Source: Microgenomates group bacterium GW2011_GWC1_46_15 (GTDB lineage: Bacteria > Patescibacteriota > Microgenomatia > UBA1400 > UBA12028). Taken from it: a DNA stretch of 64,000 nucleotides. Both the position numbers and the translations under genes were made by a program. The first letter of the stretch is position 1. Every line of letters begins with the position of its first letter. The stretch lies in NCBI GenBank assembly GCA_001002285.1, contig LCLX01000001.1, positions 30-64,029 on the forward strand, written 5' to 3'. The notes below the pieces were generated by a model that saw nothing but the letters and a program-made list of their open reading frames with translations, had not been told where the DNA came from and made no database searches. Below are positions 6,713 to 30,191 of this stretch, piece by piece.

Positions 6713-7216
6713 ATGAGGGATTCACTTATTTTCGCTCTCGCGTATCTCAAATACGGCATTGATACTGTCGCACGTACGCCGTCTTATATTGTCCTGTGTG
6801 TATTTATTACGATCACACTGATTGCAACAGCGTTTCGATGGGACTCGGCAATACTGAAAACACATCCACTCATGGGAACTACTTCCCCATCAGCATATCT
6901 CAACGCTATTCATTTTCTTGTTTCGTCATATGGAGACCGACAGGCTGCGGAAGTTTTGGCGAAACAGATACGTGATACAAAAGAACTTGATGGCGCGCTC
7001 CATCCCGAAAACCGTATTAAAAATCTAGAAACATTTTGGCAATCGGTGGCCACTCAACAAGCAAATGCGCGTGAAGCGTTGTTTGCGTTGGCAATCATAC
7101 ACGTTCAACTCTATGAAGATGCTCAAGCAAAGGAGTCCGCACAACATGCGATGCTCGTCGAGCCAAACGATCCACGGAGAAATCAAGTACTTCGGGAAAT
7201 ACTGCAGAAAAATTAA
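6713..7216 (+). CDS. hypothetical membrane-anchored protein
   Basis: 167 aa, one TM helix, helical C-terminal part. Confidence 0.35.
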   Translation: MRDSLIFALAYLKYGIDTVARTPSYIVLCVFITITLIATAFRWDSAILKTHPLMGTTSPSAYLNAIHFLVSSYGDRQAAEVLAKQIRDTKELDGALHPENRIKNLETFWQSVATQQANAREALFALAIIHVQLYEDAQAKESAQHAMLVEPNDPRRNQVLREILQKN

Positions 7217-7962
7217 CCCTTTTTCTCTTCTTTTTTCTCGGGAGCTGCTGGTTTTATTGCTGGTTTTGCCGCCACTTTACCGGCTGGCTGTTTCGCACCA
7301 GCGCCAGCCTCAGCTGCCACTTCGCCTTCTTCGCCCTCTTTCTTCGCGCCTTGTACCGTTGTTTCAGTTTCAACTGGCTCAACAACCACTGGTTCCTCTT
7401 CTTTCTTTGGCTCTTGAATCAGCACAAGCACTTCTTCTGGAGGAAGCTTCACTTCAATTTTTGCGCGGTCAAACTGGAGATCAGAAACTTTATATTCCTT
7501 CCCAATTTCCGTAAGCCCACTAATATCAAACACAAACTTTTCTGGAAGATCGGATGGCAACGCCTCAACCTCAATCTCGTCGTGGAGCGCGAGCAAAACG
7601 CCACCAGCTTTCACCGCGACAGACTCTCCGATGAGCTCGAGCGGAACTTTTGCAGTCACTTTTTCTTTCAAGTCAACTTGCTGAAGATCAACGTGAAGCA
7701 GTTTTCCGGAAAGCGGGTGATATGCGATGTTGGTAACAAGTACGGGGCGAGGCGTTGTTTCGCCTTCAATAGTGAGTTCAATAAGACCCGTTTCTCCGGC
7801 AGCCGCAAATGTTTTTGTAAATGCAATTTCGTCGAGTTCAATCGAAACCGAGGCGGTGTTGCCGAACACATTCGCCGGAAGCTTGCGCTGCGCGCGGAGT
7901 TGTTTTACCTTTTTTCCAAGAAGCGTGCGCTTCTTTGCTTGAAGGATGTGTTTCTGTTTCAT
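7213..7962 (-). CDS. rplY: 50S ribosomal protein L25 / general stress protein Ctc form with E/K/A-rich C-terminal tail
   Basis: KLLHVDLQQVDLKEKVTAKVPLELIGESVAVKAGGVL...ALPSDLPE matches L25/Ctc core. Confidence 0.85.
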   Translation of the reverse strand: MKQKHILQAKKRTLLGKKVKQLRAQRKLPANVFGNTASVSIELDEIAFTKTFAAAGETGLIELTIEGETTPRPVLVTNIAYHPLSGKLLHVDLQQVDLKEKVTAKVPLELIGESVAVKAGGVLLALHDEIEVEALPSDLPEKFVFDISGLTEIGKEYKVSDLQFDRAKIEVKLPPEEVLVLIQEPKKEEEPVVVEPVETETTVQGAKKEGEEGEVAAEAGAGAKQPAGKVAAKPAIKPAAPEKKEEKKG

Positions 7963-7980: not shown

Positions 7981-10620
7981 TCACTCTCGAGCAACTTCAA
8001 CAGCCATGTACTGGTGCGTGTCCATCGCGGTATCAAACTGAATAATGTTCCCTACCACCGCACCTTCCGGCGCAACAACCACCGCTTGCAGTGGTTTCTG
8101 CACTTGCAGAGAAAGCGAGGCGGGATAGGCATCGCTTCCGGGCTGACGTTGGAGAAAGAGCGCGTATGACGTAATTTTGGACGTAGTAAGTTGCGTGGTG
8201 TAACTCACCGTCACCGTCGTGGTCTTCCCCACCGGAATATCCAGAGGAAATCCAATAACACGCTTTCCAAACTCACTGTCCTGCGTAATGGCCGAAGCAG
8301 AAAGCGGTTTTTGGTCAATCACGATATTTGTGAGCTGAGTAAAATCAGGAACATACAGGCGGATGTAATCTCTATACGGGCCCGCCGGCCAAGCCGACGA
8401 CGGCGCGCCATTGGTAAACCGCATCGTGTGCGTATGAATCGCAGCATTTTCCGTCAAGATGACGGAGTGGTTCATAGACCGTTTTACATAAAAATTCGCA
8501 CGGTTTACCCCGACATTGGTGTCTACATGAAAAACCGTATCAACAAAGCATGGATACTGCGCAAACTGCGGCGGGCACGGCGGAGTTGCCACTGCCCCAC
8601 TCCACCCAAGCAGGGCAAACGTTTGTTGAATGTCGCTATCGTTTACCGCAAGTAATGTGTCGCTCGTTTCTAGTGTTTTTAAAAGCGCCGTTCCAAGTTT
8701 TTCCGCAGGCTCAACATCGCGCACTACCTGCACCGCTGAAAAAATTGTGCTGGAAAGCGCGGTTAAGTACTCCCGCTTTTTTGTGCCCGTGAGCGAAAGA
8801 GACAACTCACTTCTGTTCTGCAGGCGTTCAAAAATGTTCTCAACAGAAACCGACTCGTTATCATAGTCCGCGACACGAACCGGCCTAATCGCCCGGAGTA
8901 TTTCTTGTAGCGTATTCGCGTTAATTCCGATTACCCCGTCTATCTTTACCCCCAGTTCTTTCTCGATAAACCATAGTGATTGGCGCGCGGTTTTTGGAAA
9001 GTCCGGACTCCAGTTGCTGTCGCGGAAGTACCACTGTTTTTCTGAAAGATATTTTTGCAAGTCGGCCGGCGGCTCAACTTTGCCATTAAGCAGGGTGTCG
9101 GCGGCATACGAATCTTGGACTTGAACGTCCAACAACTTTCCTTTGTCAAACGTAACAAGTGCAAAACTGCCGATAAATCCGCCCGTTGGGCGTAGTTCCA
9201 GCGGGTTTTGAATTAACACAAGGTATGTTTTTTTCTGTTGAGTTCCGAACATCTGCGCGACCGCAGGGAGCGCATGATCAATCGAAATGGTGTCTTTCCG
9301 CAACTCCATGAGCTTTTTCTGCAGCGCCTGATATGTTTTATCATCCTCAAAAAGTGTGTTTTGTTTTGCGCGTGAAAGTTCAGCAGAAAACTGCGCAAGT
9401 TGCTTCTCGACGTACTCCGTGTCGCTCTGCACTTGGTTTACGTGTGCAAATGGCTGTTCATTCCCAGATGACACTACTTGAATAAATATATTCGCAAGCG
9501 ATTGAGAGAGTTGCGCGCTCGACTGCATCGCCGCCGCCCCCTTCTCTAAGATTTGAATAAGTTGTTCTGTGTCTTCAACAACATCTTCTTTTCCAAAAAG
9601 TGAGTACAATGGGGTAACGACTGGCCGCACTACCTGAAATACGATAGCCCTTCTTTGCAAAGCAGATGTTTCTTTTTTGATACTTCCCTGAGTAAGGGCG
9701 TCGGAAAACAGGACCGCCTGCGTTCCTCGAAGCGACGCCTGAATCCCCTTTTTAATGTACTCAAAAAGCAGCGTTACGCTTAAAAGAAATATTCCCGCTA
9801 TGGTGAGTGAAAAAAGAATAATTTTTGCTTCTTTATTGAGGTAACGAAATAATGGTTTATGCCTAGTGGCCTGGTCTGAGCGGCGCTGTGGTGAGCTTGG
9901 TTGTGGGGACATAGACGGCGCAGGCGCTTGGCGGTTCTTCTGAAACAGTGCAAATAGTACGCGCTCTTTTTCGTGCTCTTCGTGATCGCTTTCAGATTGA
10001 GATTGGGGCTGAACTTGCGGCGCCGTTTTTATTTTTATCTGCGGGACTTGCCGACGCACCGTCCCCCGGACTTCAAACTCTGTTGGAAGGTGCGAAAAAA
10101 GCGAGTACGTCTTGGAAACTGGAATAACAATCTTTTTTTTCTGCGCAGCTTCATCGCGCGCTTCTTGGCCAGTTTTTGTTGTGATCCGAACCTCTCCCCT
10201 CTTTTTTCTCCCATTCAAGATTTGATCAAGTACTGTGCGGATATTTTCAGGACTTACTTCAAACACATCCACAATCATGACAAGCGACTGCTTTGCTATT
10301 TTTTTTATCTCTTCCTGGCTAGACTCAAAAACGTTCTCTGAAATAAGGAGAAAACATGGGCTCCCCCACTCTTTTCCTTTTTGTATTGCGAGCGCAAGTG
10401 TCTCGGCAGTCCCTTTCCCCCATCGGTCAGCGGAAAAAACCACCGCGTATGGCGTTCCCTTGGGAGGAAACCGGGAAAATTCGTGCGCGAATCTCCCCTC
10501 GTACTCTGGATTTTGTATTCCAACGTGGCGTACAAGCGTTTCCACAAACACGCTCTTCTCACCGAAAAAGATAACGGGGATACTCTCCTGAAGTGTTTCT
10601 GTAATAAAGCGTCGTGGCAT
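7981..10620 (-). CDS. large membrane protein with DUF4012-like extracellular domain
   Basis: 879 aa; central TM; region LVLIQNPLELRPTGGFIGSFALVTFDKGKLLDVQVQDSY typical of DUF4012 (CPR/Actinobacteria). Confidence 0.55.
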   Translation of the reverse strand: MPRRFITETLQESIPVIFFGEKSVFVETLVRHVGIQNPEYEGRFAHEFSRFPPKGTPYAVVFSADRWGKGTAETLALAIQKGKEWGSPCFLLISENVFESSQEEIKKIAKQSLVMIVDVFEVSPENIRTVLDQILNGRKKRGEVRITTKTGQEARDEAAQKKKIVIPVSKTYSLFSHLPTEFEVRGTVRRQVPQIKIKTAPQVQPQSQSESDHEEHEKERVLFALFQKNRQAPAPSMSPQPSSPQRRSDQATRHKPLFRYLNKEAKIILFSLTIAGIFLLSVTLLFEYIKKGIQASLRGTQAVLFSDALTQGSIKKETSALQRRAIVFQVVRPVVTPLYSLFGKEDVVEDTEQLIQILEKGAAAMQSSAQLSQSLANIFIQVVSSGNEQPFAHVNQVQSDTEYVEKQLAQFSAELSRAKQNTLFEDDKTYQALQKKLMELRKDTISIDHALPAVAQMFGTQQKKTYLVLIQNPLELRPTGGFIGSFALVTFDKGKLLDVQVQDSYAADTLLNGKVEPPADLQKYLSEKQWYFRDSNWSPDFPKTARQSLWFIEKELGVKIDGVIGINANTLQEILRAIRPVRVADYDNESVSVENIFERLQNRSELSLSLTGTKKREYLTALSSTIFSAVQVVRDVEPAEKLGTALLKTLETSDTLLAVNDSDIQQTFALLGWSGAVATPPCPPQFAQYPCFVDTVFHVDTNVGVNRANFYVKRSMNHSVILTENAAIHTHTMRFTNGAPSSAWPAGPYRDYIRLYVPDFTQLTNIVIDQKPLSASAITQDSEFGKRVIGFPLDIPVGKTTTVTVSYTTQLTTSKITSYALFLQRQPGSDAYPASLSLQVQKPLQAVVVAPEGAVVGNIIQFDTAMDTHQYMAVEVARE

Positions 10621-10791: not shown

Positions 10792-11253
10792 TTATCGTGA
10801 TGTAATCTCTGCGTCAAGCGCGGCATTCACCAATGCGTCAGCCCGTGCGTTTTTATCGCGGGGAATATGCGTGAATATATATGACAGTTTTAACGAGTCA
10901 AGAATGATGTGGATTTTCCTCACATACTCGAGAATGTGTGGTTGTTTTACTTTATATGTCCCGCTCATTTGTTGAACGACTAAAAGGGAGTCGAGAAAAA
11001 ATTGAATCCTTGTTGGTTTCTCCTTCCCAGAGGAAAGCGGGGAAGTGGGGGAACGGGAAAGCCATGTTGATGCCTGAAGAAGCGCTTCATACTCTGCGGT
11101 ATTATTGGTTGTTTGGCCAATATACAAACTTATTTCAAAAAGCGTTTTTCCTTGAAATTCTCCATGGACTCCTATTGCGGCTGGCCCCGGATTTCCCCGG
11201 GCTCCACCATCAGTAAAAATTGTTAGTGTGGAATCACTTACTTTTTGCATCAA
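10792..11253 (-). CDS. rnhA: ribonuclease HI
   Basis: FTDGGARGNPGPAAIGV ... NNTAEYEALL ... NARADALVNAAL. Confidence 0.85.
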   Translation of the reverse strand: MMQKVSDSTLTIFTDGGARGNPGPAAIGVHGEFQGKTLFEISLYIGQTTNNTAEYEALLQASTWLSRSPTSPLSSGKEKPTRIQFFLDSLLVVQQMSGTYKVKQPHILEYVRKIHIILDSLKLSYIFTHIPRDKNARADALVNAALDAEITSR

Positions 11254-11695
11254 GATTCCCCTCAGGAAACACCGTGAGTCTTCTTTCTATTCCTTCGCCC
11301 TCTGACTGCGTAACAACACCGGCGTCTTTGAGTGCCATATGCACAAGCCGGCGTTCTTCAGGAGAGAGCTGGGGAAGTGTTTCTGGTTTTCCAGACTCTT
11401 TAACCCGCTCAGCAACCTCAAGCGCCATCTGTTGAACAGCGTCGCCCCGACGCACCTTGTACTCATTAATGTCAACCGAGATGCGTTTTTCTCCCAATTG
11501 GTCGCGGAACGTTGTCGCGACAATGCGCTGAAGGCCGGTGAGCGTTTCACCACGGCGGCCAATAAACATCCCAGAGTCTTCCTCTGGGACGCGAATTGTT
11601 GCTTTAATGGTCTGCTCGTCTTCTTCTATGGTAATTTCTGCGTTTTCACACCCCATGTGGGCGAGTGCCTGTTCCAGATAATCTTGAATCGTCAT
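11234..11695 (-). CDS. jag: Jag/KhpB KH + R3H RNA-binding protein
   Basis: KH motif FIGRRGETLTGLQ and R3H LSPEERRLVHMAL; conserved position next to yidC. Confidence 0.8.
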   Translation of the reverse strand: MTIQDYLEQALAHMGCENAEITIEEDEQTIKATIRVPEEDSGMFIGRRGETLTGLQRIVATTFRDQLGEKRISVDINEYKVRRGDAVQQMALEVAERVKESGKPETLPQLSPEERRLVHMALKDAGVVTQSEGEGIERRLTVFPEGNLDAKSK

Positions 11696-12459
11696 GCCGT
11701 CTCCTTTTTTGCGCGTACAAATATTTTATTCCAATACATCTTGAGTCCACCTGGGCCAGAAACAAGCCATTGCTGGCCAATGCTAAACACTGTACTTGCA
11801 ACCCAATACACTGCGAGACCAGCGGGGAACTTGAGCGCTGCAAACGCCGTCATAAAGGGAATCATAAACACCATTTGCTTCTGAATAGACTCCGCCATGT
11901 CTTGCGCGTTTCCTTCTTTTTTATTTGCTTCTTTCAGCTTTTTTGACTTTGCATCATCTGGAATGAGGTCGTGTGACTCGACGCCAGGCAAAACCATCAC
12001 TGACAATATCAACTGTGTAAGTCCTGCGAGGACGGGGAGAATATATGTGTGGTCTGGTTTCGCTAAATCAATAGTAAAAAACATTGTGTTGATTGTTACA
12101 CCGTTTACTTGCGGAGTATTAAGAAATGTATTGAGCCCTTGATAAAGAATAATGAGCGCGGCAAACTGAAGAATAAACGGCAAACAGCCCGCGAGGGGGT
12201 TGACGTTGTGTTCTTGATAGAGTTTTAACTGTTCTTGCTGAAGTTTTGTCTTATCTCCCCCATGAAGCGTTTTAAGTTCGTCTAGGTGCGGCTTGAGTTC
12301 CTGCATTTTTTTCTGTGTTTTCATGGTTGGAATAGAGAGGGGGGCGAGGATGCCGCGCAAAATCAGTGTAAAAAGAATAATGGCAAACCCAAAGTTTCCG
12401 CCAGAGAGTTGGTAGAGATAGACAAGAAAATGGAGAATTGGTGCCGTGATTTGTTCCAT
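11692..12459 (-). CDS. yidC: membrane protein insertase YidC (short, Gram-positive type)
   Basis: 255 aa; GNFGFAIILFTLILRGILAPLSIPTMK, multi-TM; synteny rnpA-yidD-yidC-jag. Confidence 0.9.
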   Translation of the reverse strand: MEQITAPILHFLVYLYQLSGGNFGFAIILFTLILRGILAPLSIPTMKTQKKMQELKPHLDELKTLHGGDKTKLQQEQLKLYQEHNVNPLAGCLPFILQFAALIILYQGLNTFLNTPQVNGVTINTMFFTIDLAKPDHTYILPVLAGLTQLILSVMVLPGVESHDLIPDDAKSKKLKEANKKEGNAQDMAESIQKQMVFMIPFMTAFAALKFPAGLAVYWVASTVFSIGQQWLVSGPGGLKMYWNKIFVRAKKETA

Positions 12460-12493: not shown

Positions 12494-12733
12494 TTATGAT
12501 CTACACGAGAGAATGCGTTTCATTCCCATCAATAATCCCCGCATTGTACCATATTTTTGAATGCTTCTTGCCGCATACTCACTGCAGGTGGGGGAGTGGA
12601 TACACTCCGGCGCGCGACCAAACGCCGTTTTTTCCATAGACCGAAATACTGGGTACACTGCCCGATAGGCATTAACGAGTCCTATCGCGCATTTCTGTGA
12701 GAAGGTGAGTGATGGTGCGCTCGAGTGAGTCAT
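12494..12733 (-). CDS. yidD: membrane protein insertion efficiency factor YidD
   Basis: CIHSPTCSEYAARSIQKYG...RILSC motif. Confidence 0.8.
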   Translation of the reverse strand: MTHSSAPSLTFSQKCAIGLVNAYRAVYPVFRSMEKTAFGRAPECIHSPTCSEYAARSIQKYGTMRGLLMGMKRILSCRS

Positions 12734-13016
12734 GCGTTTCTCCTGCTTTATGAATAATAATAATACACTCTTTGCCTTGTATTTCGGTGGCGTTATTAAT
12801 AATTTTTTCTTGAATAATCGCGCTCACGATTCTTTTGAGAAGATTGCGCCCTGTTGCTTTTCTTACCACAGTCGCCGGAACAATAACAGCGGCGCGCGGT
12901 GTCTTATCTTGAGATTTTCTCCAATAGAGTCCTACTCCGCGCAGTGATACCCGCTTTGCCTGAGGAAAAAATTTCTTTTCTTTGCGGAGGTGAAGGCGAT
13001 TCTGTTGAGGAAGCAT
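12672..13016 (-). CDS. rnpA: ribonuclease P protein component
   Basis: 114 aa basic protein; NRLHLRK...RVSLRGVGLYWRKS...RNLLKR; synteny downstream of rpmH. Confidence 0.85.
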   Translation of the reverse strand: MLPQQNRLHLRKEKKFFPQAKRVSLRGVGLYWRKSQDKTPRAAVIVPATVVRKATGRNLLKRIVSAIIQEKIINNATEIQGKECIIIIHKAGETHDSLERTITHLLTEMRDRTR

Positions 13017-13024
13017 GCGGTGCG

Positions 13025-13168
13025 CTACACAGTCAGCGTTTTTCTACCTTTTTGTCTGCGCCTTGCCAAGACCTTGCGGCCATCTTTTGTCTGCATGCGC
13101 TTGCGGAATCCGTGCGTGCGGGTCCGTTTCTTTTTCTTTGGTTGCCATGTGCGAAATGTTTTTGCCAT
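13025..13168 (-). CDS. rpmH: 50S ribosomal protein L34 (missed as a separate ORF in the supplied track because of frame overlap)
   Basis: Manual translation of minus strand gives [47 protein letters not shown], a canonical L34. Confidence 0.85.
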
Positions 13169-13237
13169 GTGGGCATTATATCAGGAAAAGCCGAGAGTAC
13201 AACGTCACCGCCCTCTGTTTCTTTATGTTCTTTAGTT

Positions 13238-13307
13238 ATCCACATCATCATTTTTAACAAATGTGTTTTTTAGTCCGTCTTTTTTCCTACTTGTAAAATG
13301 TGGATAA
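13238..13307. promoter_or_regulatory. DnaA boxes upstream of dnaA (TTATCCACA at 13238-13246; TGTGGATAA at 13299-13307)
   Basis: Perfect 9-mer consensus in both orientations in the rpmH-dnaA intergenic region. Confidence 0.55.
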
Positions 13308-13427
13308 CTGCATATAAGATTGGTGGACGTTTCCCCGCCCAAAAACTCTATTGCGTATATCCACGCAGTTCTGTCACCAAACGCTGCCCAATTCCGCCCG
13401 CCAACGTTACACATAAAAGGCGCTCAT

Positions 13428-14894
13428 ATGACCATGATGACTCCACAAGAACTCTGGGAAAAATCCCGCCCACCACTTGAAGACGCTCTCTCAAAAAGGA
13501 TGTATACTTTTTGGTTTAGTACAACAGAACTTACCGAAATCCGTGAAGTCGGAGAAGACCGCGCGATCGGTGTTATTAGCGGCTCAAGCGTTTTTCATCT
13601 TAGTAATGTTGAAAATAAATACTACGCGCACATTAAGGAAGTGTTTGACAAACTTACGGGGAAAAAATTTGAACTTCAGTTCGCCATTAAGCGGGGAGTG
13701 AAAAAACAGAAGAGCATTGCTGGGGGAACGGGGAAGGGTTCATCAAAGAAAAATCCTCAAGAAGAGTTCCCCAACCTTTTTTCGCAGGAAAATCAGCGCA
13801 TTGAAGGATCTCAAGAAAAAGGTAAAACATTTCCCACCTCGTTTACGTTTGCCCTGCAAAAGGCTGGCCTTCGCGAAGACTACGCATTTGAAACGCTCGC
13901 TGTTTCTTCAAGTAATGAAATGGCACACGCCGCCGCGGTCGCGGTGTCACAAAATCCCGGAACCGCATACAACCCGCTTTTCCTTTACGGCGGGGTGGGG
14001 GTGGGGAAAACCCACCTTATGCAAGCAATCGGCAATAATATTTTGAGGAAAAATCCACAAACGCCCATTGCATATATTACGGGCGAGCAGTTTACAAACG
14101 AAATCGTCGCGGCAATTCAGCAAAAGCGCACGATTGATCTCAAGAAAAAGTTCCGCAACTATAAGGTACTCCTTGTTGATGACGTGCAGTTTATCGCAGG
14201 GAAAAACACCGTGCAGGAAGAGTTTTTCCACACGTTCAACGCGATCACACCGGCGGGGGGACAAATTATTTTGACTTCAGACCGCCCACCACACGAAATC
14301 ATGTTGCTTGAAGACCGGTTACGTTCGCGGTTCGAGGCCGGGCTTATTGTTGATATTCAGCAGCCCTCGTTTGAACTCCGCACCGCCATTTTGCTCATCA
14401 AGGCTAAAAAACTCGAGCTCGACCTTCCTATGGATGTGGCACAGCGGATTGCTTCGGCGATTGAAAGCACCCGGAGGCTCGAGGGAATCCTTATTAAACT
14501 CCACTCTGAACACACTCTTTTTAAAAAACCCATCTCTATTGAGCTTGTGGAGGAAATTTTGGGGAAAATCGAGAAAGTTGAGTTTCCAAAACAAGATATT
14601 AAGCCCGCAGAAGTATTAAAAACGGTTGCCGCGCAGTTCCATCTCACAACAAATAGCCTCAAGGGGCCGTCCCGAGTTAAAAATCTCGTTGAAGCTCGGC
14701 ATATTGCGATGTATATTCTCCGGTATGATCTCGGGGTAACCCTCGATCAAATCGGTCTTTTGTTTAATGGGCGGGACCACTCCAGCATTATTCATGCAAC
14801 CGAAAAAATTAAGGCTACTATTATAGAAAATGAGGAGCTCCGCACTCGGGTAAACGCGGTAAAAACAAGCCTGTCATTCCGCCAAGAGTCGTAG
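13428..14894 (+). CDS. dnaA: chromosomal replication initiator DnaA (ORF track start 13320; likely start MTMMTPQE at 13428)
   Basis: Walker A GGVGVGKTHLMQAIGN, LLVDDVQFIAGK, sensor/box VII SRFEAGLIVDIQQP, C-terminal HTH. Confidence 0.95.
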   Translation: MTMMTPQELWEKSRPPLEDALSKRMYTFWFSTTELTEIREVGEDRAIGVISGSSVFHLSNVENKYYAHIKEVFDKLTGKKFELQFAIKRGVKKQKSIAGGTGKGSSKKNPQEEFPNLFSQENQRIEGSQEKGKTFPTSFTFALQKAGLREDYAFETLAVSSSNEMAHAAAVAVSQNPGTAYNPLFLYGGVGVGKTHLMQAIGNNILRKNPQTPIAYITGEQFTNEIVAAIQQKRTIDLKKKFRNYKVLLVDDVQFIAGKNTVQEEFFHTFNAITPAGGQIILTSDRPPHEIMLLEDRLRSRFEAGLIVDIQQPSFELRTAILLIKAKKLELDLPMDVAQRIASAIESTRRLEGILIKLHSEHTLFKKPISIELVEEILGKIEKVEFPKQDIKPAEVLKTVAAQFHLTTNSLKGPSRVKNLVEARHIAMYILRYDLGVTLDQIGLLFNGRDHSSIIHATEKIKATIIENEELRTRVNAVKTSLSFRQES

Positions 14895-14939
14895 TCCTTT
14901 CCCACATTTCTAGACCACAATGGTAAAAAGATGTTGATA

Positions 14940-15160
14940 TCTCTACTCCAATTGTGGGAACTGTGGACAACCCCAACTGAGTTATCCACTTACCCACAAA
15001 ATTGGGCGGTTATCCACAAAGTTATCCACAGTTTTCCACATAGTATTCAACACAAATATCTCCCGAATTACTTGAAGGGCCGTCGATGAGTTATCCATTT
15101 ACCCCCATTCCTACTACTAGTACTACTATTGTATATACGTTTAAGAAAGACACGAACAGC
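14940..15160. promoter_or_regulatory. oriC: DnaA-box cluster plus AT-rich unwinding region between dnaA and dnaN
   Basis: TTATCCACA at 15010-15018 and 15022-15030; variants TTATCCACT (14982-14990), TTTTCCACA (15032-15040), TTATCCATT (15091-15099), TGTGGACAA (14962-14970); AT-rich tactactagtactactattgtatatacg at 15101-15130. Confidence 0.75.
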
Positions 15161-15244
15161 CCCTCCAGGAACTCTCTTTAACAATCCTTCTCAAAACTAT
15201 CGGTACTTCACAAACCTCCTTTACACGTTTACAATTCGGGCACG

Positions 15245-16357
15245 ATGCAATTCACTATTCTCCAAGAAAATCTTTTAAAGGCAACACAAGAAGTTCTTCG
15301 TTTCATTCCATCAAAAACACCGCTTCCGATTCTTTCATGTTTTCTTCTTGAGGTAAAAAGGGGGGAAATATCCTTCTCCGCAACGGACTTGCAGACAGGG
15401 ATCAAAGAAACCGTTGATGGAAAAGTGATGAGTACGGGGGCTACCGCGCTTCCAGCAAGAGTATTTGTCGAGTATATTTCTTCACTACCAGCCGGAACAA
15501 TTGAAGTCGAAGAAAAAGATGCAGAGCTTCATATAACAGCGGGGAAAGCGTCAGCAGTGTTTCAAATATCTTCTCCAAAAGACTTTCCACAGTTCCCAGA
15601 AAAAGAAGGGGAGGATGTTGTTTTGCCGCGCGAAGCATTTCTCTCGATTATAGAAAAAGGAGGACTTGCCTCTGGTGTGGATGAAACGCGCCCCGTATTC
15701 TCATCGCTCTATATTGAAGGAAAAGACGGGGTATTGTGTGGGGTGAGCACCGACGGATACAGGTTGGCACGGAAAGAAGTAAAGATAAAAGGGTGGAAGT
15801 ACGACGGCATCCTTTTGCCAACCAAAGCCGTCCGCGAAATTTCCCGCATCATTGACCGCCTGCACGTGGAAAGCGTTGGAATAAGCCTCTCTGCACGCTT
15901 AGGGCAAGTCTTTTTTACCGCCGGCGATTTATTTTGCAGTGTTCGGCTCATCGAAGCAAGTTTTCCGGACTACGACACAATTATCCCAAAAGAATTCGGT
16001 GTTCAAATAAAGTTTCAGCGTGAAGAATTTTTGTCTGCACTCAAAACTGCGCTTGTATTTGGAAAAGAAAGTTCTGGAATTATTAAACTTTCCATTCAAA
16101 AGGACTCGTTGTTGATTACTGCATCATCAAACGCTGTTGGGAAAAATGAAACACAGGTTGATATAGAAAAAATTACGGGAGAAAATGCAGAAATTGCGTT
16201 CAATGGGAAGTATCTTCAGGATTTACTGTCCGCGGTTACCGGCGAGACCGTGTGGTTTGGAATGAATGAGCCATTAAAGCCTGGAATGTTCAAAATTGAA
16301 GGTGAAGAAGGATTTGTGTATATCGTGATGCCGTTCCGTATGCAGGGGGAAAGTTAG
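15245..16357 (+). CDS. dnaN: DNA polymerase III beta sliding clamp
   Basis: 370 aa; MQFTILQENLLKATQEVLRFIPSK... three-domain clamp pattern; follows dnaA. Confidence 0.95.
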   Translation: MQFTILQENLLKATQEVLRFIPSKTPLPILSCFLLEVKRGEISFSATDLQTGIKETVDGKVMSTGATALPARVFVEYISSLPAGTIEVEEKDAELHITAGKASAVFQISSPKDFPQFPEKEGEDVVLPREAFLSIIEKGGLASGVDETRPVFSSLYIEGKDGVLCGVSTDGYRLARKEVKIKGWKYDGILLPTKAVREISRIIDRLHVESVGISLSARLGQVFFTAGDLFCSVRLIEASFPDYDTIIPKEFGVQIKFQREEFLSALKTALVFGKESSGIIKLSIQKDSLLITASSNAVGKNETQVDIEKITGENAEIAFNGKYLQDLLSAVTGETVWFGMNEPLKPGMFKIEGEEGFVYIVMPFRMQGES

Positions 16358-16359
16358 AT

Positions 16360-18288
16360 TTAAGCGGCCGCCTGCAGTTGTGGTTGCGATAGCGGTTGAC
16401 CAGCCGGCGCTGGAGCGTTTTGTGCCTGGCCAGAGAGTTGCGAGGCACTTCGTTTTTGTAATATTTCTTCAGGATTCGTTGTAATAAGGTCGTGTTCGTC
16501 TTGCGACGCAACGACGCGGATCGCGACATGATTTTGTCCGGCAAAAAATAATCCTTCACCAACGTCGCTTGCTATCAAAAACCTCCGCTCTCCTTCGGAT
16601 AAGAAAAAGACTTGTGAGAGATAGGGGATCGCGGCAGACGACTGTTTCATTAAAAATTGAATGGACGAGTTTGTAACAATCGCTTTTCCAAAATCGTTGT
16701 TCAAAAAGTCCTCAACGTCCTGTGTGATCGTGGTGATGCCAAGATAATACTTGCGCGCGCGCTTCGCCATGGAGTGCAAGAAACTTGCGGAGTCTTTGTA
16801 CTTCATAAAGTACCACGCCTCATCGACGATCAGAATGCGTTTTTTAAGGTTTTTCTTAATGCGTGTCCAAACAAAATCAAGGATTAAAAACATCGCAATT
16901 GGGCGAAGTTCCTCTTCCATTTCTTTCACGGAAAACACAGTGAATTGATTTGTGATGTTGATGTTTGATTTTTGATCGAAAATACCACGGAATGACCCCT
17001 TGATGAATTTCTCCAGGCGCGCGGCGAGATTTTGGGACTCTTGGTTTTCCATTCCAAGAAGCGCTTTATATAAATCTTCCATAAGCGGAGGTTCATTGGT
17101 TTGTGTTGCCGGATCGGGTGTAATTCCTTTGGCCTTGTATGCCGCGATGAGCGCGCGGTCGAGCATCGCGTCTTCGGTTGGAGAAAGCTCTCCCATCATA
17201 ATTTTTAACAACGTATGAATGGAAATAATCTTCATTCCAAGCTCATTTTCACCCTCTTCATAGACCGCGCTCAAATCAAACGGATTGATTTTTTTAGGAG
17301 AACTAAACGTGAAGTTGATGTACTCGCCGCCAACGGATGTGCAAAGATCTTCGTACTCATGTTCGGGATCAAGAACAATGAGTTCGACATCAAACATGAG
17401 CTGGCGCAGAGCCTCAAGCTTCACGGCGTATGATTTTCCAGCACCGGATTTTGCAAACACCACCATGTTCGCGTTTTCCATACTAAACCGGTCGAAAATC
17501 ACCAACGAATCATTGTGCTCATTTACGCCGTACAACAGGCCCGTGTCGCTTGTGAGTTCGGCTGAAGTGAATGGGAATGTTGTCGCAAGCGACGTGGTGT
17601 CCATGTTGCGCGTGATCAAAAGTTTGTCCACGCCGATCGGGAGGGTGGTCTTAAACCCATCTTCAATTTGAAGCGCAGCAACCTTGCTCACAATAAGTAA
17701 TGAGCCGAGCATGGAGCGGATTTTATTTGTTGTTTTATTGAGTTCTTCCAGTGAAACATCAGAAATAGTGATATACAGTCCAAACTGGTAGAACCGTTCT
17801 GCGCCTTTTGCCAACTGTTCCTGGATTGATCGCGCGTCTTCTAGCTTAATTTCGGTATTAATATTACTCAGTTTTCCTTGCCGAATATCCGAACTAATTT
17901 CAGCCTCCATTTCAGTGATTTTCCGCCGTAAATCATCCAGAATCTTCTTTGATTCAACAGGGAAAATATGCATAGAAATGTCCAATGAATGCGGGAAATT
18001 AATGAGTGGGGAGAGCCAGTTTGCCGGAACGGTTCTTGGGTAGCCAGCGACAAATAATGTGCGGATAAACACATCATTGATTTTTTGGTATGAAAAATCC
18101 ACCTCAATTGCTTCCGGCGCAATAATGTCTTGGATGCTCACAAGGCCGGATGAAAATCGGTCAAGATCTTCTTTTGAAGGAATATGGGGCTGAGTACTGG
18201 ACGGGACAGTCGCCCCGCCGCTAGAGCTAGCGTTTTGCTGCGCAGAGTCTTTTTGTTTTGGTTTTAAAAACGGAAATGTGATGGGCAT
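16360..18288 (-). CDS. VirB4/TraE/PrgJ-like type IV secretion ATPase
   Basis: 642 aa; N-terminal DIIAPEAIEVDF...FVAGYPRTV typical of Gram-positive VirB4; Walker A FAKSGAGKSYAVK, Walker B ILIVDEAWYF. Confidence 0.8.
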   Translation of the reverse strand: MPITFPFLKPKQKDSAQQNASSSGGATVPSSTQPHIPSKEDLDRFSSGLVSIQDIIAPEAIEVDFSYQKINDVFIRTLFVAGYPRTVPANWLSPLINFPHSLDISMHIFPVESKKILDDLRRKITEMEAEISSDIRQGKLSNINTEIKLEDARSIQEQLAKGAERFYQFGLYITISDVSLEELNKTTNKIRSMLGSLLIVSKVAALQIEDGFKTTLPIGVDKLLITRNMDTTSLATTFPFTSAELTSDTGLLYGVNEHNDSLVIFDRFSMENANMVVFAKSGAGKSYAVKLEALRQLMFDVELIVLDPEHEYEDLCTSVGGEYINFTFSSPKKINPFDLSAVYEEGENELGMKIISIHTLLKIMMGELSPTEDAMLDRALIAAYKAKGITPDPATQTNEPPLMEDLYKALLGMENQESQNLAARLEKFIKGSFRGIFDQKSNINITNQFTVFSVKEMEEELRPIAMFLILDFVWTRIKKNLKKRILIVDEAWYFMKYKDSASFLHSMAKRARKYYLGITTITQDVEDFLNNDFGKAIVTNSSIQFLMKQSSAAIPYLSQVFFLSEGERRFLIASDVGEGLFFAGQNHVAIRVVASQDEHDLITTNPEEILQKRSASQLSGQAQNAPAPAGQPLSQPQLQAAA

Positions 18289-18314
18289 AGCAATGCACTC
18301 ATGGTATCAGGCAT

Positions 18315-19337
18315 ATGTATGATGTTCAACACCGCGCCCCACGCCTACAATTTAATGCAATCCAATCAACAACACAAAACTATCTCGAAATCTACGACGT
18401 TACAAACGATCTCGTCATTTTGCGCGATGGAACCGTGGCGCTTCTCCTGACGACAAACTCGCTCAACTTTGGACTGCTTTCCGAAGAAGAACAGGACTCG
18501 ATCATTTACACGTACGCCGGCTTATTAAACTCACTCTCTTTCCCCATTGAAATCGTGATTCGGTCGCAGAAAAAAGATATTTCCGTGTATCTTCATTATG
18601 TTGAAGAACTTGAACAAAAAAATCCGATGCCAATTCGCAAAACGCAGATCCGCCGGTACCGCGAGTTTATTCAGGAGTTGGTAAAAGAACGGAATATTTT
18701 AGACAAGAAATTTTATATCGCAATTCCATTTGCGGGAGCGTCGCTATCGCTTTCCGGCGCGATTCCGAACATTAAGAAAGAAAAAACGTTTTCTTTAGAT
18801 AAAGCGTATGTTCTCGAAAAAGCAAAAACAGACCTGGAGCCCAAACGCGACCACTTGATCGCGCAGTTTGCCCGCATCGGACTATATGCCCGCCAGCTCA
18901 CAACGCAGGAAATTATTCATCTCATGTACACGATTTATAATCCTGGGACGTCTGAAGGACAGAGAATGACGGATACGGGAAGTTACACAACGCCGCTTGT
19001 TGAGGCGAGCTTGCAAGGAGTGATGAGTCAGCCAGCGCTGCAGTCGTTCACAAAAGATGCGGATATGGGTGAAAAAGTAGCACCGACACCAGCGCCACAA
19101 GCGCAAACCCCAGCACAAACGCCCCCACCAACTCAATTGGAAGAAAAACCCATCGTGCAACAATCCGCGCAACCACCCCAATCAGAAAAAACGAGTGGAA
19201 CTGTCCGCATTATTCCTCCAGGAGAGCCGGTAAAAATTCAGCCACCGACAATGCCAATAACGCCAACGATGCCAGGAGCATCAGTACCAACACCATCAAC
19301 GCTCCAGAATTTACAAACTCCAACACCGGTGGTTTAA
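18315..19337 (+). CDS. hypothetical protein with P/Q/T-rich C-terminal tail, divergent from VirB4-like gene
   Basis: 340 aa; N-terminal globular part, low-complexity PTPAPQAQTPAQTPPPTQ tail; T4SS context. Confidence 0.35.
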   Translation: MYDVQHRAPRLQFNAIQSTTQNYLEIYDVTNDLVILRDGTVALLLTTNSLNFGLLSEEEQDSIIYTYAGLLNSLSFPIEIVIRSQKKDISVYLHYVEELEQKNPMPIRKTQIRRYREFIQELVKERNILDKKFYIAIPFAGASLSLSGAIPNIKKEKTFSLDKAYVLEKAKTDLEPKRDHLIAQFARIGLYARQLTTQEIIHLMYTIYNPGTSEGQRMTDTGSYTTPLVEASLQGVMSQPALQSFTKDADMGEKVAPTPAPQAQTPAQTPPPTQLEEKPIVQQSAQPPQSEKTSGTVRIIPPGEPVKIQPPTMPITPTMPGASVPTPSTLQNLQTPTPVV

Positions 19338-19397
19338 TTTTTCGCGCGGATTTCCAGAGGCCCAAGAATAGCGTTATTCATCGAAAGCGTGATTGGA

Positions 19398-20396
19398 TCA
19401 AACGTAAACCCGTCTTTTTCTGTGGTAATGCGGTACTCGCCAGACTTGAGTGGGGATGTTGAGAAAAACTGACCAAGTCTCCAACACCATGCCAACGACA
19501 ACGTTAGGGGTCGTTGGTGTTTTTGGAAAGGGGAGCATTGTGTTTACCGTAGCCTTCGTTGCGGTATCCGTTGCTTGTGATGAAAACGCAACTTGATCGG
19601 AATGATAGTGAAGCACATCTGGCGCTGCTTTTTGTGGTTGTAGCGCTTGTTCAGGCTTAATTCCTTGAGCAGTGTCACGGGCAACAGAAACAGGTTTTTC
19701 TCGCGCAATAGTCACGGTTTTATTTATCCCGGGAAGCACGCGGTCTTTCAACTCTCTTTGTTCTTTGATTTTTGAGAGTGAAATAATGCCGCGCATTTTT
19801 GACGGATCCTGCGCGTGTAAACTATGCATCGTAACAACGAGCGATGGTTTTTCAGCATACTCATCAAGCATATTTGGTCCACCACTGGAAACGGTAACAT
19901 TCTTTGCCGCGGGAGTAGTGTCGTATAACTGCTGAAGCGCCGCGACCCTATCATATATTTCTTGATCAAACTCATCCCGCACGACTGGTTTTGCGATGGA
20001 CTCAAAATACGCCTGTGCACGCGATGACCTGCTTTTTGCCGAACTCATCGGAAGTGGCGCAGTAGCCACGGTTTGCGAGCGCGTATATGAAAAAAGATCC
20101 GGCACGCGCAATGATTTTTTCCAGTTGAACTTTGTTGGGTTGTAAATGGCGCGGATAAACGCGAGAAACCATTGGTCGAGTGGCCGTTCCTCAAGCGGGA
20201 GAAACGCGAGCGCTGCTCCAGCTAGGACAAAGATAATAATAAGCGGAAACTTAAAAATCTGAGGAAGATTCGAAGAATATGTTAAAAATGCAAGCACGCC
20301 GCCCGACGCCAGTTCAAAAAACTGTTTCAGTGTCATGTTTCCAATGAGATGGAACTCGTATGACGTTACATTCTGTGGGACAGGATGCTCTTGCAT
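19398..20396 (-). CDS. PrgI-like (VirB3-analogue) T4SS membrane protein with long C-terminal extension
   Basis: N-terminus YEFHLIGNMTLKQFFELASGGVLAFLTY...PLIIIFVLAGAALAFLPLEERPLDQWFLAFIRAIYNPTKFNWKK matches PrgI family pattern (T-x-RQ, two TM, RP-x-D-x-W, K-x-x-W). Confidence 0.55.
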   Translation of the reverse strand: MQEHPVPQNVTSYEFHLIGNMTLKQFFELASGGVLAFLTYSSNLPQIFKFPLIIIFVLAGAALAFLPLEERPLDQWFLAFIRAIYNPTKFNWKKSLRVPDLFSYTRSQTVATAPLPMSSAKSRSSRAQAYFESIAKPVVRDEFDQEIYDRVAALQQLYDTTPAAKNVTVSSGGPNMLDEYAEKPSLVVTMHSLHAQDPSKMRGIISLSKIKEQRELKDRVLPGINKTVTIAREKPVSVARDTAQGIKPEQALQPQKAAPDVLHYHSDQVAFSSQATDTATKATVNTMLPFPKTPTTPNVVVGMVLETWSVFLNIPTQVWRVPHYHRKRRVYV

Positions 20397-20429
20397 GAAA
20401 ACATTGTAGCAGAGAAGAAGGGCGACCGA

Positions 20430-21434
20430 TTATTGCGTAACCGCAGTGGTGATAATTTCGATGTGAGTGGGAAGCCCCTGTGCATTTTTTGCCGTTCCAC
20501 CAAAGCGGTAATAGGGAATATATGTTTGATCGGATGAAGTAAAACGGTACTCAATGTGTACAGAGTCAAACACAGCTTCGGTAAGAGCGCTAAGTGATAA
20601 AACATTTCCACCAACGATAGCAGAAGAAACAACTGTTCCTTTTCCACCCCGCAAGTTTTCAAGAGCCTGATTCATAGAAAGAGGAGTAATGTTTTTATCT
20701 TGTGTGGGTTGTGGTGGAACTATACTAAACTTCAGCTTTGCAATAGTCCCATCTGAACGAACAAAGGCCAATGCGGTTGGAGCAATTGTGCTTTCAAAGA
20801 AAACAGGGTATTCGTTGAGTGAAAATATAAAAGGAATGCTTGCAAGGTTTGCAACGATCCGATCTGCTTTTTCAAGATCATGTGTTTCTAAGAAAAATAA
20901 TGTATTTTTTCTATCAGGCAACAGGTGTTCTGTGTTAAAACCCAAAGAAGCAAGAAGGATTTCGGCGTTTTGAATACTGTTTGTAAATGTTTGTTCCAAC
21001 TGAAAGGTTGTTTTTGACGGCGATCCTCCTTGGCGGGAATACTCGACAGAACGGGAAACTTTGCTGTATGAAATTTCTTCCTGCGTTGATGGATTTGTCC
21101 ATACTCCCGCGTATGTTCCGGGTGGAAGAGCAAGTTTTTTAGCAAGAGCGGAAGCAAACTCTTCTGGTAACTGAGTTTTTCCGCTGGTATATGTTGCAAG
21201 TGTTAGGGGAAGAGTTGGCGCTGTTCCGGTGAAAGAAAATGATTGTATTGAAAGTTTTGGAACAATAGCAGGAATGTTTTGTTCAGCGCCTTCGGGCAGG
21301 GTGGGTTTTTTAGAACGTGAAAAGAGCACAAACCCAATGGCGAGCACCATGATAACAATACATAGAATAATCCAAGATGATTTTTTTGAAAAAGTGAAGT
21401 TCATAATGTACTCGTATTGTATCCCGGATCGCAT
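20430..21434 (-). CDS. hypothetical membrane-anchored protein (T4SS-like operon)
   Basis: 334 aa, N-terminal TM, no known motif; overlaps upstream gene by 34 nt (operonic). Confidence 0.35.
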   Translation of the reverse strand: MRSGIQYEYIMNFTFSKKSSWIILCIVIMVLAIGFVLFSRSKKPTLPEGAEQNIPAIVPKLSIQSFSFTGTAPTLPLTLATYTSGKTQLPEEFASALAKKLALPPGTYAGVWTNPSTQEEISYSKVSRSVEYSRQGGSPSKTTFQLEQTFTNSIQNAEILLASLGFNTEHLLPDRKNTLFFLETHDLEKADRIVANLASIPFIFSLNEYPVFFESTIAPTALAFVRSDGTIAKLKFSIVPPQPTQDKNITPLSMNQALENLRGGKGTVVSSAIVGGNVLSLSALTEAVFDSVHIEYRFTSSDQTYIPYYRFGGTAKNAQGLPTHIEIITTAVTQ

Positions 21435-24400
21435 TTCGACCGAACTTCTCCATCCATTATTGGTGGTTCCTGGACGATTTCATCACGGTATGCCCCGTGA
21501 ACCTCATAGTGTACGTGTGGCCCCGTTGAATGGCCGCTACTATTTACCGTTCCAATAACGTCTCCAATAGAAACAGAAGCCTCTGTCCCCGCACCAAAGT
21601 TACCAAAATCGTTGAGGTGTCCAAAGAAAAACACGAGATCTTTTCCGTTTATTGTTGACTTAAGGATGACGTGGTTTCCGTACCCACAATCTATGCCGAA
21701 TGCACTAGCAATACTACAAATTCCAAATCCTTCTGGGTAAAATGTTGCAACTCCGGGATACGGAGCGTATACCGGAGCACCCGTTGGCGCACCAATGTCA
21801 ATCGCTTGTCCACCAAGTCCTGGTCCTACACCACACACATTTTGCCCGGAAAGCCCCGTTTCACACCCATGATGAACGCCGTGAGTGCCACCACCGAGCC
21901 GTGAAGAATAAACATCGAGTCCATTCACTTGTCCGCTCGTTGGCCAGCATCCCTGATTACCAACTCCAGTTGCGTATATTGCAGAACGAATACTGCCTTC
22001 TACTGATGTTTGAAATGCCAACTGCCGTTGTTGTTGTGTAAGTGCCCCCCATCCCAAAACTCCAAGCCCTGTTGTGGCGACAACCGCTCCGGAGAATCCG
22101 CCGACCGTTCCAAGCCCCGCGCTTAACTGAGTCATAAAAGATGAAAATCCGGCACCAAGCCCAGTGAAAAATTTTGTTAGTCCACCTAGGGCCCATTTTC
22201 CAACAGCAGCAAAAAGATTTTTTGTTACTCCAAGGAGACCCGAAAGATTTGCGACTCCTTGTGAAAAAAACCACTTTGCTCCTTGCCAAATTGCCCATCC
22301 AATAAGACCCAAAATAAGTGCGATCGCGGCCATAATACCGGCAAGGATCGCGAGCAACAACTTGAGTTGTTTCCCAGTCATCTCAACAAGCTTGTTGTAT
22401 GCGTCTTGAATAATTGGGCCAAGAACTGGAATTTGCGAAGCAATTTGAATAACTTGGTTGAGTTTTTCAATGGCGGCAGCGGCTTCAGGTCCAAGAACGC
22501 CAGCGGCTAATATCGTAAGCACAAATTGACCCAACTGCCGGTCAAGATTGTTTTTATCCTGCGCGCCAGTAAACATTGGCGAGTTTTGTCCGGCAGAAAA
22601 TCCCTCACCCATGAATTCGCTCAACGCGCTTCCGGCCTCAAACAGCCCATCGTCACCGATATTTTGAAGATACAAAAACTGCACAAAATCCTGGCTCACG
22701 CCGTACTGCATAAAAAGCTGGTACAGCTGAGTTGTTTTCTCTTTTTGATGAAGCTGTTTCCATACCGTTGCAGAAAACGGTGTCGTAGGCGCGAATTGAT
22801 TCACTAAGTATTCCTGTATGCCTTGTGGTTGGCCAAGAAAATTCTGTATATGTTGATTGAGGGTTCCGCGGAAACGAGCACCGGCCTGATTTGGCTGAGG
22901 GGAAGTGCCATACAATCCCGCGGCAACCTCCTTAAATCCGAACGCCTGCAGCGCTTTTTCAACACCTAGCGTTACTTGCGGCCGCACCCCGTGTGTGGGA
23001 TCGGCATACAATACGCCGTTTTGATGCGTGAGCGCATAGATTTGTTGGCGGTGCGCGGAAATATAATGCAAAAAGAATGACTGCCAAGAGAATGCTTGCA
23101 CTCCGGCGGCTTTTGCGCGTGCGATCTCGGCCTCAAGATTTCTTTGTATCGTTGGACTTTGAAAAAGATCACTAAACAACCGTTCAAACGCTTTTTCATC
23201 CATCCGATCAACATTTGCTCGTGTAATTGCCAACGCTTTAAGTCGCAAAAGTACACCGTTAATATCTTGTTCGGGCACATGAATAGTTGTTAAAAATGTG
23301 CGGAGGTTTTTTTCAAGTGAGTCGGTATATGCCTCAGACGAGCGGATATCGGAGCCCGCTTTTTGATTAAACTCCGCGATTTTTTGAAGATTTGCTTCAA
23401 GCTCTTTACCATTTTCTTGATTTTTTAAAACGCCGCTGAATGTTGCGTTATCAATATTCTGTGCGATGGTTGCGGGTGTAATGGAGGCAAACTGCTGGGC
23501 AAACCGCTTTTTTGCCTGCACCTTGTTTTCAAACAATTTTCCATTTGTGGAGTTGAGCGCATCGAATAGCGCGTCTTGGAATGATCTCTTTGTTTGCGCG
23601 CGAATCATGATATCGCGGAACAACCGAAGTCGGGCGCCCGTTTTTCCAACATCTTCTGGCCGGAGTTTTTGCAGTTCAAGCAAAATAAATGGATATAACT
23701 CGTCGCGCGACTTAAAAAATGTGTTACGGAATACCACAAACTGCTGGTCATTTACACCATACGAAGCAGCGATACCACGAAGCACCGCCTCACGGATGCG
23801 TTCAGCCTCTTTGAGATACGCAATGTTAAACTTGTCGACGTCTTGCGCACGCGCATACAGGTCTTTATCAATAGGCTGGGGCGGTTTTTGTTCCTCCTGT
23901 TTCTTTTTCTCCTTTTCCTCCTTCTCTTTCTTCTTGTCTTTTTCGATGATGGGAATTGGAATACCAGCACCACCGCTAGTTTCTCCTTGTGCCTTCACAA
24001 CTTCTTCTGCAGTCTCTTCCTCTTTTTTGAGTTCTTCTATCGCCCCAATGGGCAAAACGATTGACTGCGCTTCTTCCAAACACGCAACCAGCAACGCCGC
24101 ATCATCAATGTCATTCTGCTTGCGCGCCGGCGTATATCCCTCAAGTTTTACCGCGCCAAATCGCGCGCTTTGCGCCCGTTCATTAAATACTTGCTGCTTA
24201 TGAAAAATGTCGAGATCAAACTCTTCGGGAATTTGCAGGCGAATGGTAATCAGCAAACTCAAGAGTTTATTGAGTGAAATATGATATCCGCCATCACTGT
24301 CCGGTGTTACGGCGAGCTCGGCGAGCAGAACATCGCGCCCCGCATTTGTCTGAAGCTCATGCAAGAGATGTGCCGCATTCTCAATATCGCGCTGAGAAAA

Positions 24401-28052: not shown

Positions 28053-28100
28053 AAGTAATACATATTGACAAAGTATTACTTTATATAGTAGTATTACCAC

Positions 28101-28331
28101 ATGCACACAGCAACAATAACACAAAAAGGGCAAATAACGATTCCCTTGGTCTTGAGGGAAGCCTTTGGATTAAGAGCGTACGGTAAAGCCAGGCTGGAAC
28201 AAGGAGATGGTTTCATCAAGGTATACGCGCAGGAGGACATTTTGGATTTAGTTGATACATTTGTTCCCAAAGTGAAAAAACCACTCATGAAAACCCGCGA
28301 GGCGTTTGAAAAGAAATATACGAGGTTTTAA
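28101..28331 (+). CDS. AbrB/SpoVT-type antitoxin (VapB-like)
   Basis: 76 aa; ITQKGQITIPLVLREAFGL swapped-hairpin motif; overlaps PIN gene start (ATGA). Confidence 0.65.
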   Translation: MHTATITQKGQITIPLVLREAFGLRAYGKARLEQGDGFIKVYAQEDILDLVDTFVPKVKKPLMKTREAFEKKYTRF

Positions 28332-28750: not shown

Positions 28751-28756
28751 TATTGA

Positions 28757-30169: not shown

Positions 30170-30191
30170 TATTGCATGGTAAAATAACGGT

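Follow-up and report, generated by a model that had tools for sequence, protein, structure and literature searches.

The dnaA locus of Microgenomates group bacterium GW2011_GWC1_46_15, a member of the Patescibacteria or candidate phyla radiation (CPR), raises the question of where the chromosome of such an uncultivated bacterium begins to replicate and which DNA elements open it. We addressed this question in a stretch of 64,000 nucleotides of contig LCLX01000001.1, hereafter called the window, in which a preliminary description had placed a chromosomal replication origin at dnaA. This placement is supported by a local enrichment in binding sites of the initiator protein DnaA (DnaA boxes), a canonical gene order, an intact DnaA and a layout kept in relatives. 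The spacer between dnaA and dnaN (14895-15244) is very probably the chromosomal origin (oriC) of this bacterium and would work like the incC region of Bacillus subtilis.

The perfect DnaA box TTATCCACA is found four times in the whole window, whereas 0.33 copies are expected by chance, and all four flank dnaA. Two of them precede the gene, at 13236-13244 on the plus strand and at 13299-13307 on the minus strand, and two follow it in tandem on the plus strand, at 15010-15018 and 15022-15030. Four copies were reached in none of 100 shuffles. If one mismatch is allowed, the window holds 27 boxes for 14.6 expected, nine of the 27 being located within 13236-15040. Furthermore, six boxes with at most one mismatch are packed in 79 bp of the dnaA-dnaN spacer (14962-15040), where 0.018 would be expected (Poisson P ~5e-14): besides the two perfect ones, these are one-mismatch boxes starting at 14962 (minus strand) and at 14982, 14990 and 15032 (plus strand). 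With up to two mismatches, the spacer has ten box-like sites. No other 400-bp stretch of the window includes more than two boxes at this one-mismatch level and it holds no rival cluster. The preliminary description was exact for the two tandem perfect boxes between dnaA and dnaN and right in counting at least four one-mismatch variants nearby. The two boxes of opposite orientation that it had reported upstream of dnaA both exist, the reverse one at the very position given, but the forward one lies 2 nt away from 13238-13246, where it had been placed. Moreover, the local enrichment in boxes that it had proposed to check was found over the 64-kb window to be confined to the dnaA locus, with shuffles and Poisson expectation as controls.

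The spacer was then compared with those of relatives, which were retrieved by protein search and contig look-ups and include one 96% relative (L081, a 1.9-kb contig) and seven relatives whose DnaA is 59-66% identical. In an alignment of eight dnaA-dnaN spacers (A1), column identity calculated segment by segment is 0.76-0.90 for the boxes and 0.86 for the trio array described below, versus 0.50-0.57 for the gaps between elements. The box array begins with a reverse pair, TGTGGGAAC / TGTGGACAA (14953-14970, minus strand; column identity 0.79), for which relatives carry TGTGGATATGTGGATAAC. The boxes described next are on the plus strand. Overlapping tandem boxes, TTATCCACT and TTACCCACA, are offset by 8 nt (14982-14998; column identity 0.84) and are followed by the two perfect boxes, offset by 12 nt, and by TTTTCCACA (15032-15040). 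This group (15010-15040; column identity 0.90) is the best-conserved block of the spacer, with many invariant columns, and is presumed to be the high-affinity anchor of DnaA. Two additional tandem boxes, again with an 8-nt offset, are located at 15091-15107, close to the trios, whose orientation they share: TTATCCATT (15091-15099) and TTACCCCCA (15099-15107). They carry two mismatches each and appear in relatives as GTTTTCCnnTTATCC(A/C)CA (column identity 0.76). The overlapping-box module is present as a 20-nt direct repeat, gagTTATCCAcTTACCCaCA at 14979-14998 and gagTTATCCAtTTACCCcCA at 15088-15107, and trios follow the second copy only.

These trios occupy 15111-15128, where the top strand reads CTA CTA CTA GTA CTA CTA and the bottom strand 3'-GAT GAT GAT CAT GAT GAT-5' (column identity 0.86). 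The DnaA-trio consensus defined for B. subtilis is 3'-GAT-5', with a conserved central A (PMC8287927). Six consecutive trios are thus present, five of them being exact GAT, and the count rises to eight with the flanking TTC (15108-15110) and TTG (15129-15131), which also fit 3'-NAN-5'. The array is unique in the window, since (CTA)x3, ([CG]TA)x5 and (NTA)x6 occur nowhere else in it, and ([CG]TA)x5 or (NTA)x6 arose in none of 300 first-order Markov simulations. The preliminary description had called this tactac tract AT-rich and suggested that it could be the unwinding element. Its existence and its uniqueness in the window are borne out, but its AT-richness had been overstated: 15101-15130 has 60% AT for a window mean of ~54%, and the AT-rich part is a short stretch of 22 nt next to it (15129-15150, 82% AT; column identity 0.70), for which relatives carry TATATATATA. 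The least stable 26-mer of the spacer, which ranks at the 99.9th percentile of the whole window, is 15112-15137; it starts in the tactac tract because of the TA steps of the latter and runs into the AT-rich stretch, which is the probable site where melting spreads. By its base pattern and strand, the tactac tract is a predicted DnaA-trio array, i.e. the single-strand DnaA-binding motif of the basal unwinding system (BUS), and not simply an AT-rich unwinding element. The description of the BUS is reportedly due to Richardson, in 2016 and 2019, and to Pelliciari, in 2021 and 2023.

In the published search, BUS modules were recognized by three or more NAN trios separated by 0-16 bp from a box with at most two mismatches (PMC8287927). 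In the window, the first CTA is separated by 11 bp from TTATCCATT and by 3 bp from TTACCCCCA, and 6-8 trios are present. The strand carrying the trios and their side relative to the boxes match those of Bacillota loci, and an easily melted AT-rich stretch is present distal to the trios (15129-15150). The likeness to the incC/BUS part of B. subtilis oriC (DnaA-boxes #6/#7, trios and AT-rich region) includes the location between dnaA and dnaN, tandem boxes with an 8-nt offset in trio orientation, a short C-rich gap, top-strand CTA trios (bottom strand 3'-GAT-5'), the AT-rich stretch and the presence of more boxes upstream of dnaA. However, the trio-proximal boxes of the window are weak, with two mismatches each, and its strong boxes are found 60-80 bp further upstream. 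Its AT-rich stretch is also shorter than that of the B. subtilis BUS, and a clade-specific 35-bp block is inserted between the strong boxes and the BUS. Finally, the distance between the downstream box and the first CTA is 3 nt in the window and 4 nt in Bacillota loci.

The initiator encoded by the locus is complete and keeps the DNA-contact residues, I190 being replaced by Val. Its alignment with 8btg, the DnaA of the BUS complex of B. subtilis solved by cryo-EM, has E = 3e-91 and no gap throughout domain III, and the B. subtilis trio-contact residues N187, I190 and R264 (the arginine finger) correspond to N224, V227 and R301. In B. subtilis, N187 forms a hydrogen bond with the adenine in the middle of every trio (PMC10721633), and I190 binds the single strand. 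The DnaA of the window also has Walker A and B motifs (GGVGVGKTH and LLVDDVQF) and, in domain IV, the recognition segment RDHSSIIHA. A valine at the position of I190 is the variant of Escherichia coli and Aquifex. The exact-sequence look-up of this DnaA retrieved no record; the nearest species representatives, which are Pacebacteria/Paceibacterota, Amesbacteria and other Patescibacteria, have a DnaA with 40-47% identity, and the protein matches at 52-57% identity carry the names Microgenomates or Woesebacteria. These matches point to chromosomal DNA from a CPR bacterium, probably one of the class Microgenomatia.

Binding, unwinding and firing are inferred by analogy with the work done on B. 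subtilis, and initiation may proceed as follows. Domain IV of DnaA would bind the ten or so boxes, most strongly the perfect ones of 15010-15030. DnaA bound to the strong boxes and to the overlapping weak pair (15091-15107) would nucleate an ATP-DnaA oligomer, which the weak pair would guide onto the trios of the bottom strand (15111-15128, 3'-GAT-5'), and domain III would capture and stretch this strand via the equivalents of B. subtilis N187, I190 and R264. Melting would spread into the AT-rich stretch 15129-15150, where the helicase would be loaded.

All seven relatives in the 59-66% range of DnaA identity keep the entire layout of boxes and trios. Arrays of the CCTACTACTA type directly precede dnaN in more distant Patescibacteria (L001-L008, L027 and L038), and the Amesbacteria locus L005 has an 18-mer identical to the trio array of the window. 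Some of these distant loci seem to have variant spacer boxes, TTATTCACA in L001 and L002 and TTATGCACA/TTGTGCACA in L007, with CTA-type trios being kept, which hints at a co-variation of the box and of DnaA domain IV within the radiation. A strict BUS pattern was defined as a box with at most two mismatches and, no more than 16 bp away, four or more CTA-like triplets. On the dnaA strand and at most 650 nt downstream of dnaA, 29 of 83 loci have this pattern, whereas 1.08 Mb of control sequence taken from these loci has none. Bacillota loci carry the module as TTATCCACATATCCACA-gcc-CCTACTACTATTACTACTA with an AT-rich stretch behind it; Peribacillus has TTATCCACATATCCACA-aga-CCTACTACTATTACTACTA, again with an AT-rich stretch next to it, and two loci of Clostridium resemble the latter. 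In these Bacillota/Firmicutes loci, the tandem boxes TTATCCACATATCCACA have the same 8-nt overlap as those of the window at 15091-15107 and 14982-14998. Short motifs do recur by chance in general, and the boxes and the tactac repeat could in principle lie beside dnaA fortuitously. The shuffles (0/100), the Poisson probability (~5e-14), the simulations (0/300) and the conservation in relatives nevertheless refute this explanation, to which we give practically no credence.

The boxes located upstream of dnaA may have another role. The forward perfect box (13236-13244) is kept only in the 96% relative L081 and, with one mismatch, as TTATACACA in L082. A lax reading of NAN trios after this box (ATC ATT TTT) was rejected, as these triplets are not GAT-like and are shared with the 96% relative alone. 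The reverse perfect box (13299-13307) is found inside the spacer of a promoter-like site on the plus strand, TTGTAA (13291-13296)-N16-TATAAG (13313-13318), and in the alignment of the region upstream of dnaA (A2), relatives keep CTTGCA-AAATGTGGATAACT...TATAnTGTGRATAA. A third and weaker box, ATATCCACG (13357-13365, plus strand), is located in the dnaA leader; L087 and L088 have ATATCCACA at the equivalent place, and L082 and L084 a partial CCACAT. The promoter scan did not flag 13291-13318 because its -10 has no T at position 6. Furthermore, the sites that the sigma-70 scan recognized as promoter-like are no commoner than in shuffles (2 vs 3.4). The identification of the dnaA promoter is drawn from conservation instead. 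A box inside the dnaA promoter is the classic arrangement for DnaA self-repression, and the box 13299-13307 looks like an autoregulatory operator by which DnaA would repress its own promoter. Since the upstream boxes are located at or in the conserved dnaA promoter, we read them mainly as an operator: the three boxes (13236, 13299 and 13357) most likely mediate the repression of dnaA by DnaA, and they may also assist the origin.

These upstream boxes would have a more essential function if the origin were obligately bipartite, like incAB+incC of B. subtilis or oriC1+oriC2 of Helicobacter pylori. DnaA would then bridge the region 13236-13365 and the downstream cluster, dnaA being looped out and both halves being needed. 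Box clusters are indeed present on both sides of dnaA (two perfect boxes and a weaker one upstream, about ten downstream), relatives keep one or more reverse boxes upstream of dnaA, and a stretch of low stability is found among the upstream boxes (13247-13272, 99.2nd percentile of the window). In addition, the known origins closest in architecture are those of Bacillota, which are bipartite. The origins of Clostridioides difficile and H. pylori also have boxes on both sides of dnaA and a predicted trio unwinding site on the dnaN side; their oriC1 lies upstream of dnaA and their oriC2 downstream, with unwinding in oriC2. However, the upstream cluster of the window differs from theirs by its small size (3 boxes) and by its coincidence with the dnaA promoter. 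Autoregulation alone explains conserved boxes that are located inside this conserved promoter or just after it, the forward box 13236 has the narrow distribution given above, and no GAT-type trio array is present upstream of dnaA. Richardson et al. also reportedly found in 2019 that, of the two sides, B. subtilis requires only incC in vivo. An obligately bipartite origin is therefore unlikely in our opinion, and we favor an origin in the dnaA-dnaN spacer, with a putative operator upstream of dnaA.

A promoter-like site is also found at the other end of this spacer: TTCACA-N17-TACAAT (15207-15235, plus strand; 10/12 matches) ends 9 nt before the ATG of dnaN. A -10-like TACAAT is located 6-9 nt before this ATG in the window and in five of the seven relatives, and no Shine-Dalgarno sequence is evident at the dnaN start (15245). 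This suggests a conserved promoter that would give a leaderless or nearly leaderless dnaN mRNA.

As promoter-like sites adjoin both box clusters, one may ask whether the latter only regulate the transcription of dnaA and dnaN, like the B. subtilis clusters located outside oriC, replication starting elsewhere. The GC skew of the window, which does not single out the locus with significance, is compatible with such a purely regulatory role. Nevertheless, regulation gives no reason why a trio array should be correctly oriented and spaced, with a column identity of 0.86, nor why it should be detected in 29 of 83 loci versus none in the controls. Moreover, the minimum of the cumulative skew is at the locus and nothing else in the window is origin-like. 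We consequently hold it to be very improbable that these clusters have a regulatory function only, and retain the dnaA-dnaN spacer as the origin.

GC skew, which the preliminary description had suggested as a check, was analyzed in three ways: with overlapping 2-kb windows, with a per-base cumulative curve combined with the per-gene skew at third positions, and with a block-permutation change-point test. None gave a significant result. The minimum of the per-base cumulative G-minus-C curve of the window is at 15347, ~200 bp from the trios, but a second trough at 26856 is nearly as deep (-138 vs -141), so that the check neither confirms nor refutes the origin. The window is too short for this analysis and the curve is disturbed by a low-GC island (26.6-32.7 kb), which causes the second trough. 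This minimum is compatible with the origin call but gives no support by itself, and the skew argument was dropped as support.

Several observations weigh against our reading of the locus. GC skew is uninformative in the window, as the change-point test gave p = 0.30 when the split was left free and p = 0.10 when it was set at 15.1 kb; the best split is at 27 kb, because of the low-GC, purine-skewed island. Genes are co-directional for ~60% of them on the left of the locus but for ~49% on the right, i.e. the right side has no orientation bias. The preliminary description had stated that the locus sets the direction of replication for the rest of the window; as the skew change is not significant and the genes show no bias on the right, this direction is an extrapolation beyond what the window shows. 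The AT-rich stretch is short (~22 nt), the AT-rich region of B. subtilis being longer. Besides, ~50 nt between this stretch and the dnaN promoter are absent from relatives, the segment 15151-15226 being largely missing from them (column identity 0.27). The origin was read from sequence alone, in an organism known only from metagenomes. Finally, the boxes next to the trios (15091-15107) carry two mismatches each, whereas most described BUS modules have a near-consensus upstream box (PMC8287927).

The island that disturbs the skew curve (26653-32738) has a GC content of 0.36-0.41, versus ~0.46 in the window, and a strong excess of G over C and of A over T. It opens with an AbiEi/AbiEii toxin-antitoxin pair (26653-28052). 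Its ORFs of 139, 470 and 848 aa have no match in PADLOC, and those of 470 and 848 aa have none in Pfam. This island was probably acquired horizontally.

The spacer also includes a conserved block of 35 bp, TTCAACACaaatatctCCCGAAtTACTTGAAG (TTCAACAC...CCCGAAnTACTTGAAG; 15044-15078, plus strand), which separates the strong DnaA boxes from the unwinding module. With a column identity of 0.75 over eight spacers, it is as conserved as the weak DnaA boxes, whereas the neighboring gaps reach 0.50-0.57. It contains no DnaA box at up to two mismatches and, by eye, neither an IHF-type WATCAANNNNTTR site nor a -35/-10 pair on either strand. We tentatively propose, as one possibility among others, that it is the binding site of a lineage-specific accessory or regulatory factor of the origin, placed like IHF in E. 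coli oriC. If so, this factor would provide a handle on the timing of replication in ultra-small, host-dependent CPR bacteria. Alternatively, it may be a set of very degenerate low-affinity DnaA sites.

The gene neighborhood is that of a canonical origin. On the minus strand, jag/khpB (11234-11695), yidC (11692-12459), yidD (12494-12733), rnpA (12672-13016) and rpmH, encoding L34 (13025-13168), diverge from dnaA and dnaN, which are on the plus strand. This arrangement, already reported in the preliminary description, is backed by both Pfam and NCBIfam, and its canonical order recurs in relatives. The dnaA gene (13428-14894; TIGR00362, 438 bits for a cut-off of 344) encodes 488 aa from the first of three in-frame ATGs (13428, 13434 and 13437), and dnaN (15245-16357; TIGR00663, 241 bits) encodes a protein of 370 aa with three beta-clamp Pfam domains. 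The Rfam scan detected no RNA family at the locus. The jag-yidC-yidD-rnpA-rpmH block diverging from dnaA is also found upstream of this gene in L082, L083, L087 and L088. Where the contigs of relatives are long enough, their gene order is RNase H-jag-yidC-yidD-rnpA-rpmH / dnaA-dnaN / virB4.

Directly after dnaN, the minus strand carries a type IV secretion cluster (16360-24508), which encodes a VirB4-like ATPase (16360-18288; Pfam/NCBIfam), a PrgI-family protein (19398-20396) and a protein of 1035 aa that carries an M23 peptidase domain at its C-terminus (21401-24508), and which also includes unannotated ORFs. The dnaN-virB4 junction recurs in L082, L083 and L088. In Patescibacteria, virB4 type IV secretion genes have been described beside dnaN, dnaA, rnpA and rpmH (PMC12102498), and the window, with its VirB4, PrgI and M23 peptidase genes directly after dnaN, matches this neighborhood. 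However, that study uses dnaA only as a proxy of the origin and does not describe origin DNA elements (PMC12102498), which are described here.

Two other features of the window can be mentioned. Near the origin, an ORF of 879 aa (7981-10620, minus strand), whose sole match is DUF4012, adjoins the gene of ribosomal protein L25/TL5 (7213-7962). Much further away, 17 nt after a tRNA-Ser(TGA), a tRNA with a long variable arm (56392-56475, plus strand) has the anticodon loop TTACTAA, i.e. the anticodon ACT (Ser, codon AGU), according to both ARAGORN and examination by eye. An A34 in a serine tRNA is unusual in bacteria, GCU being the norm.

How does this origin compare with those already known? With E. 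coli oriC, it shares the 9-mer consensus TTATCCACA, the same initiator and the association of strong and weak sites beside an unwinding element. However, E. coli oriC (located between gidA and mioC, with R boxes, I/tau/C sites, Fis sites and GATC) is not beside dnaA, has a 13-mer DNA unwinding element (DUE) and depends on IHF and on Dam/SeqA. The origin of the window is very probably an ordinary DnaA-oriC with a Bacillus-type BUS, i.e. a modest extension that changes no current concept. Patescibacteria are absent from the main text of the BUS survey, and with the terms used, our literature search retrieved no paper describing origin elements of CPR bacteria. The presence in Patescibacteria of a Bacillus-type unwinding module that is similar nearly base for base is in line with the published idea of an ancient module. 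Moreover, fixing the start of replication of an uncultivated CPR genome helps with its orientation, with checks of assembly closure and with the estimation of growth rates from coverage (peak-to-trough).

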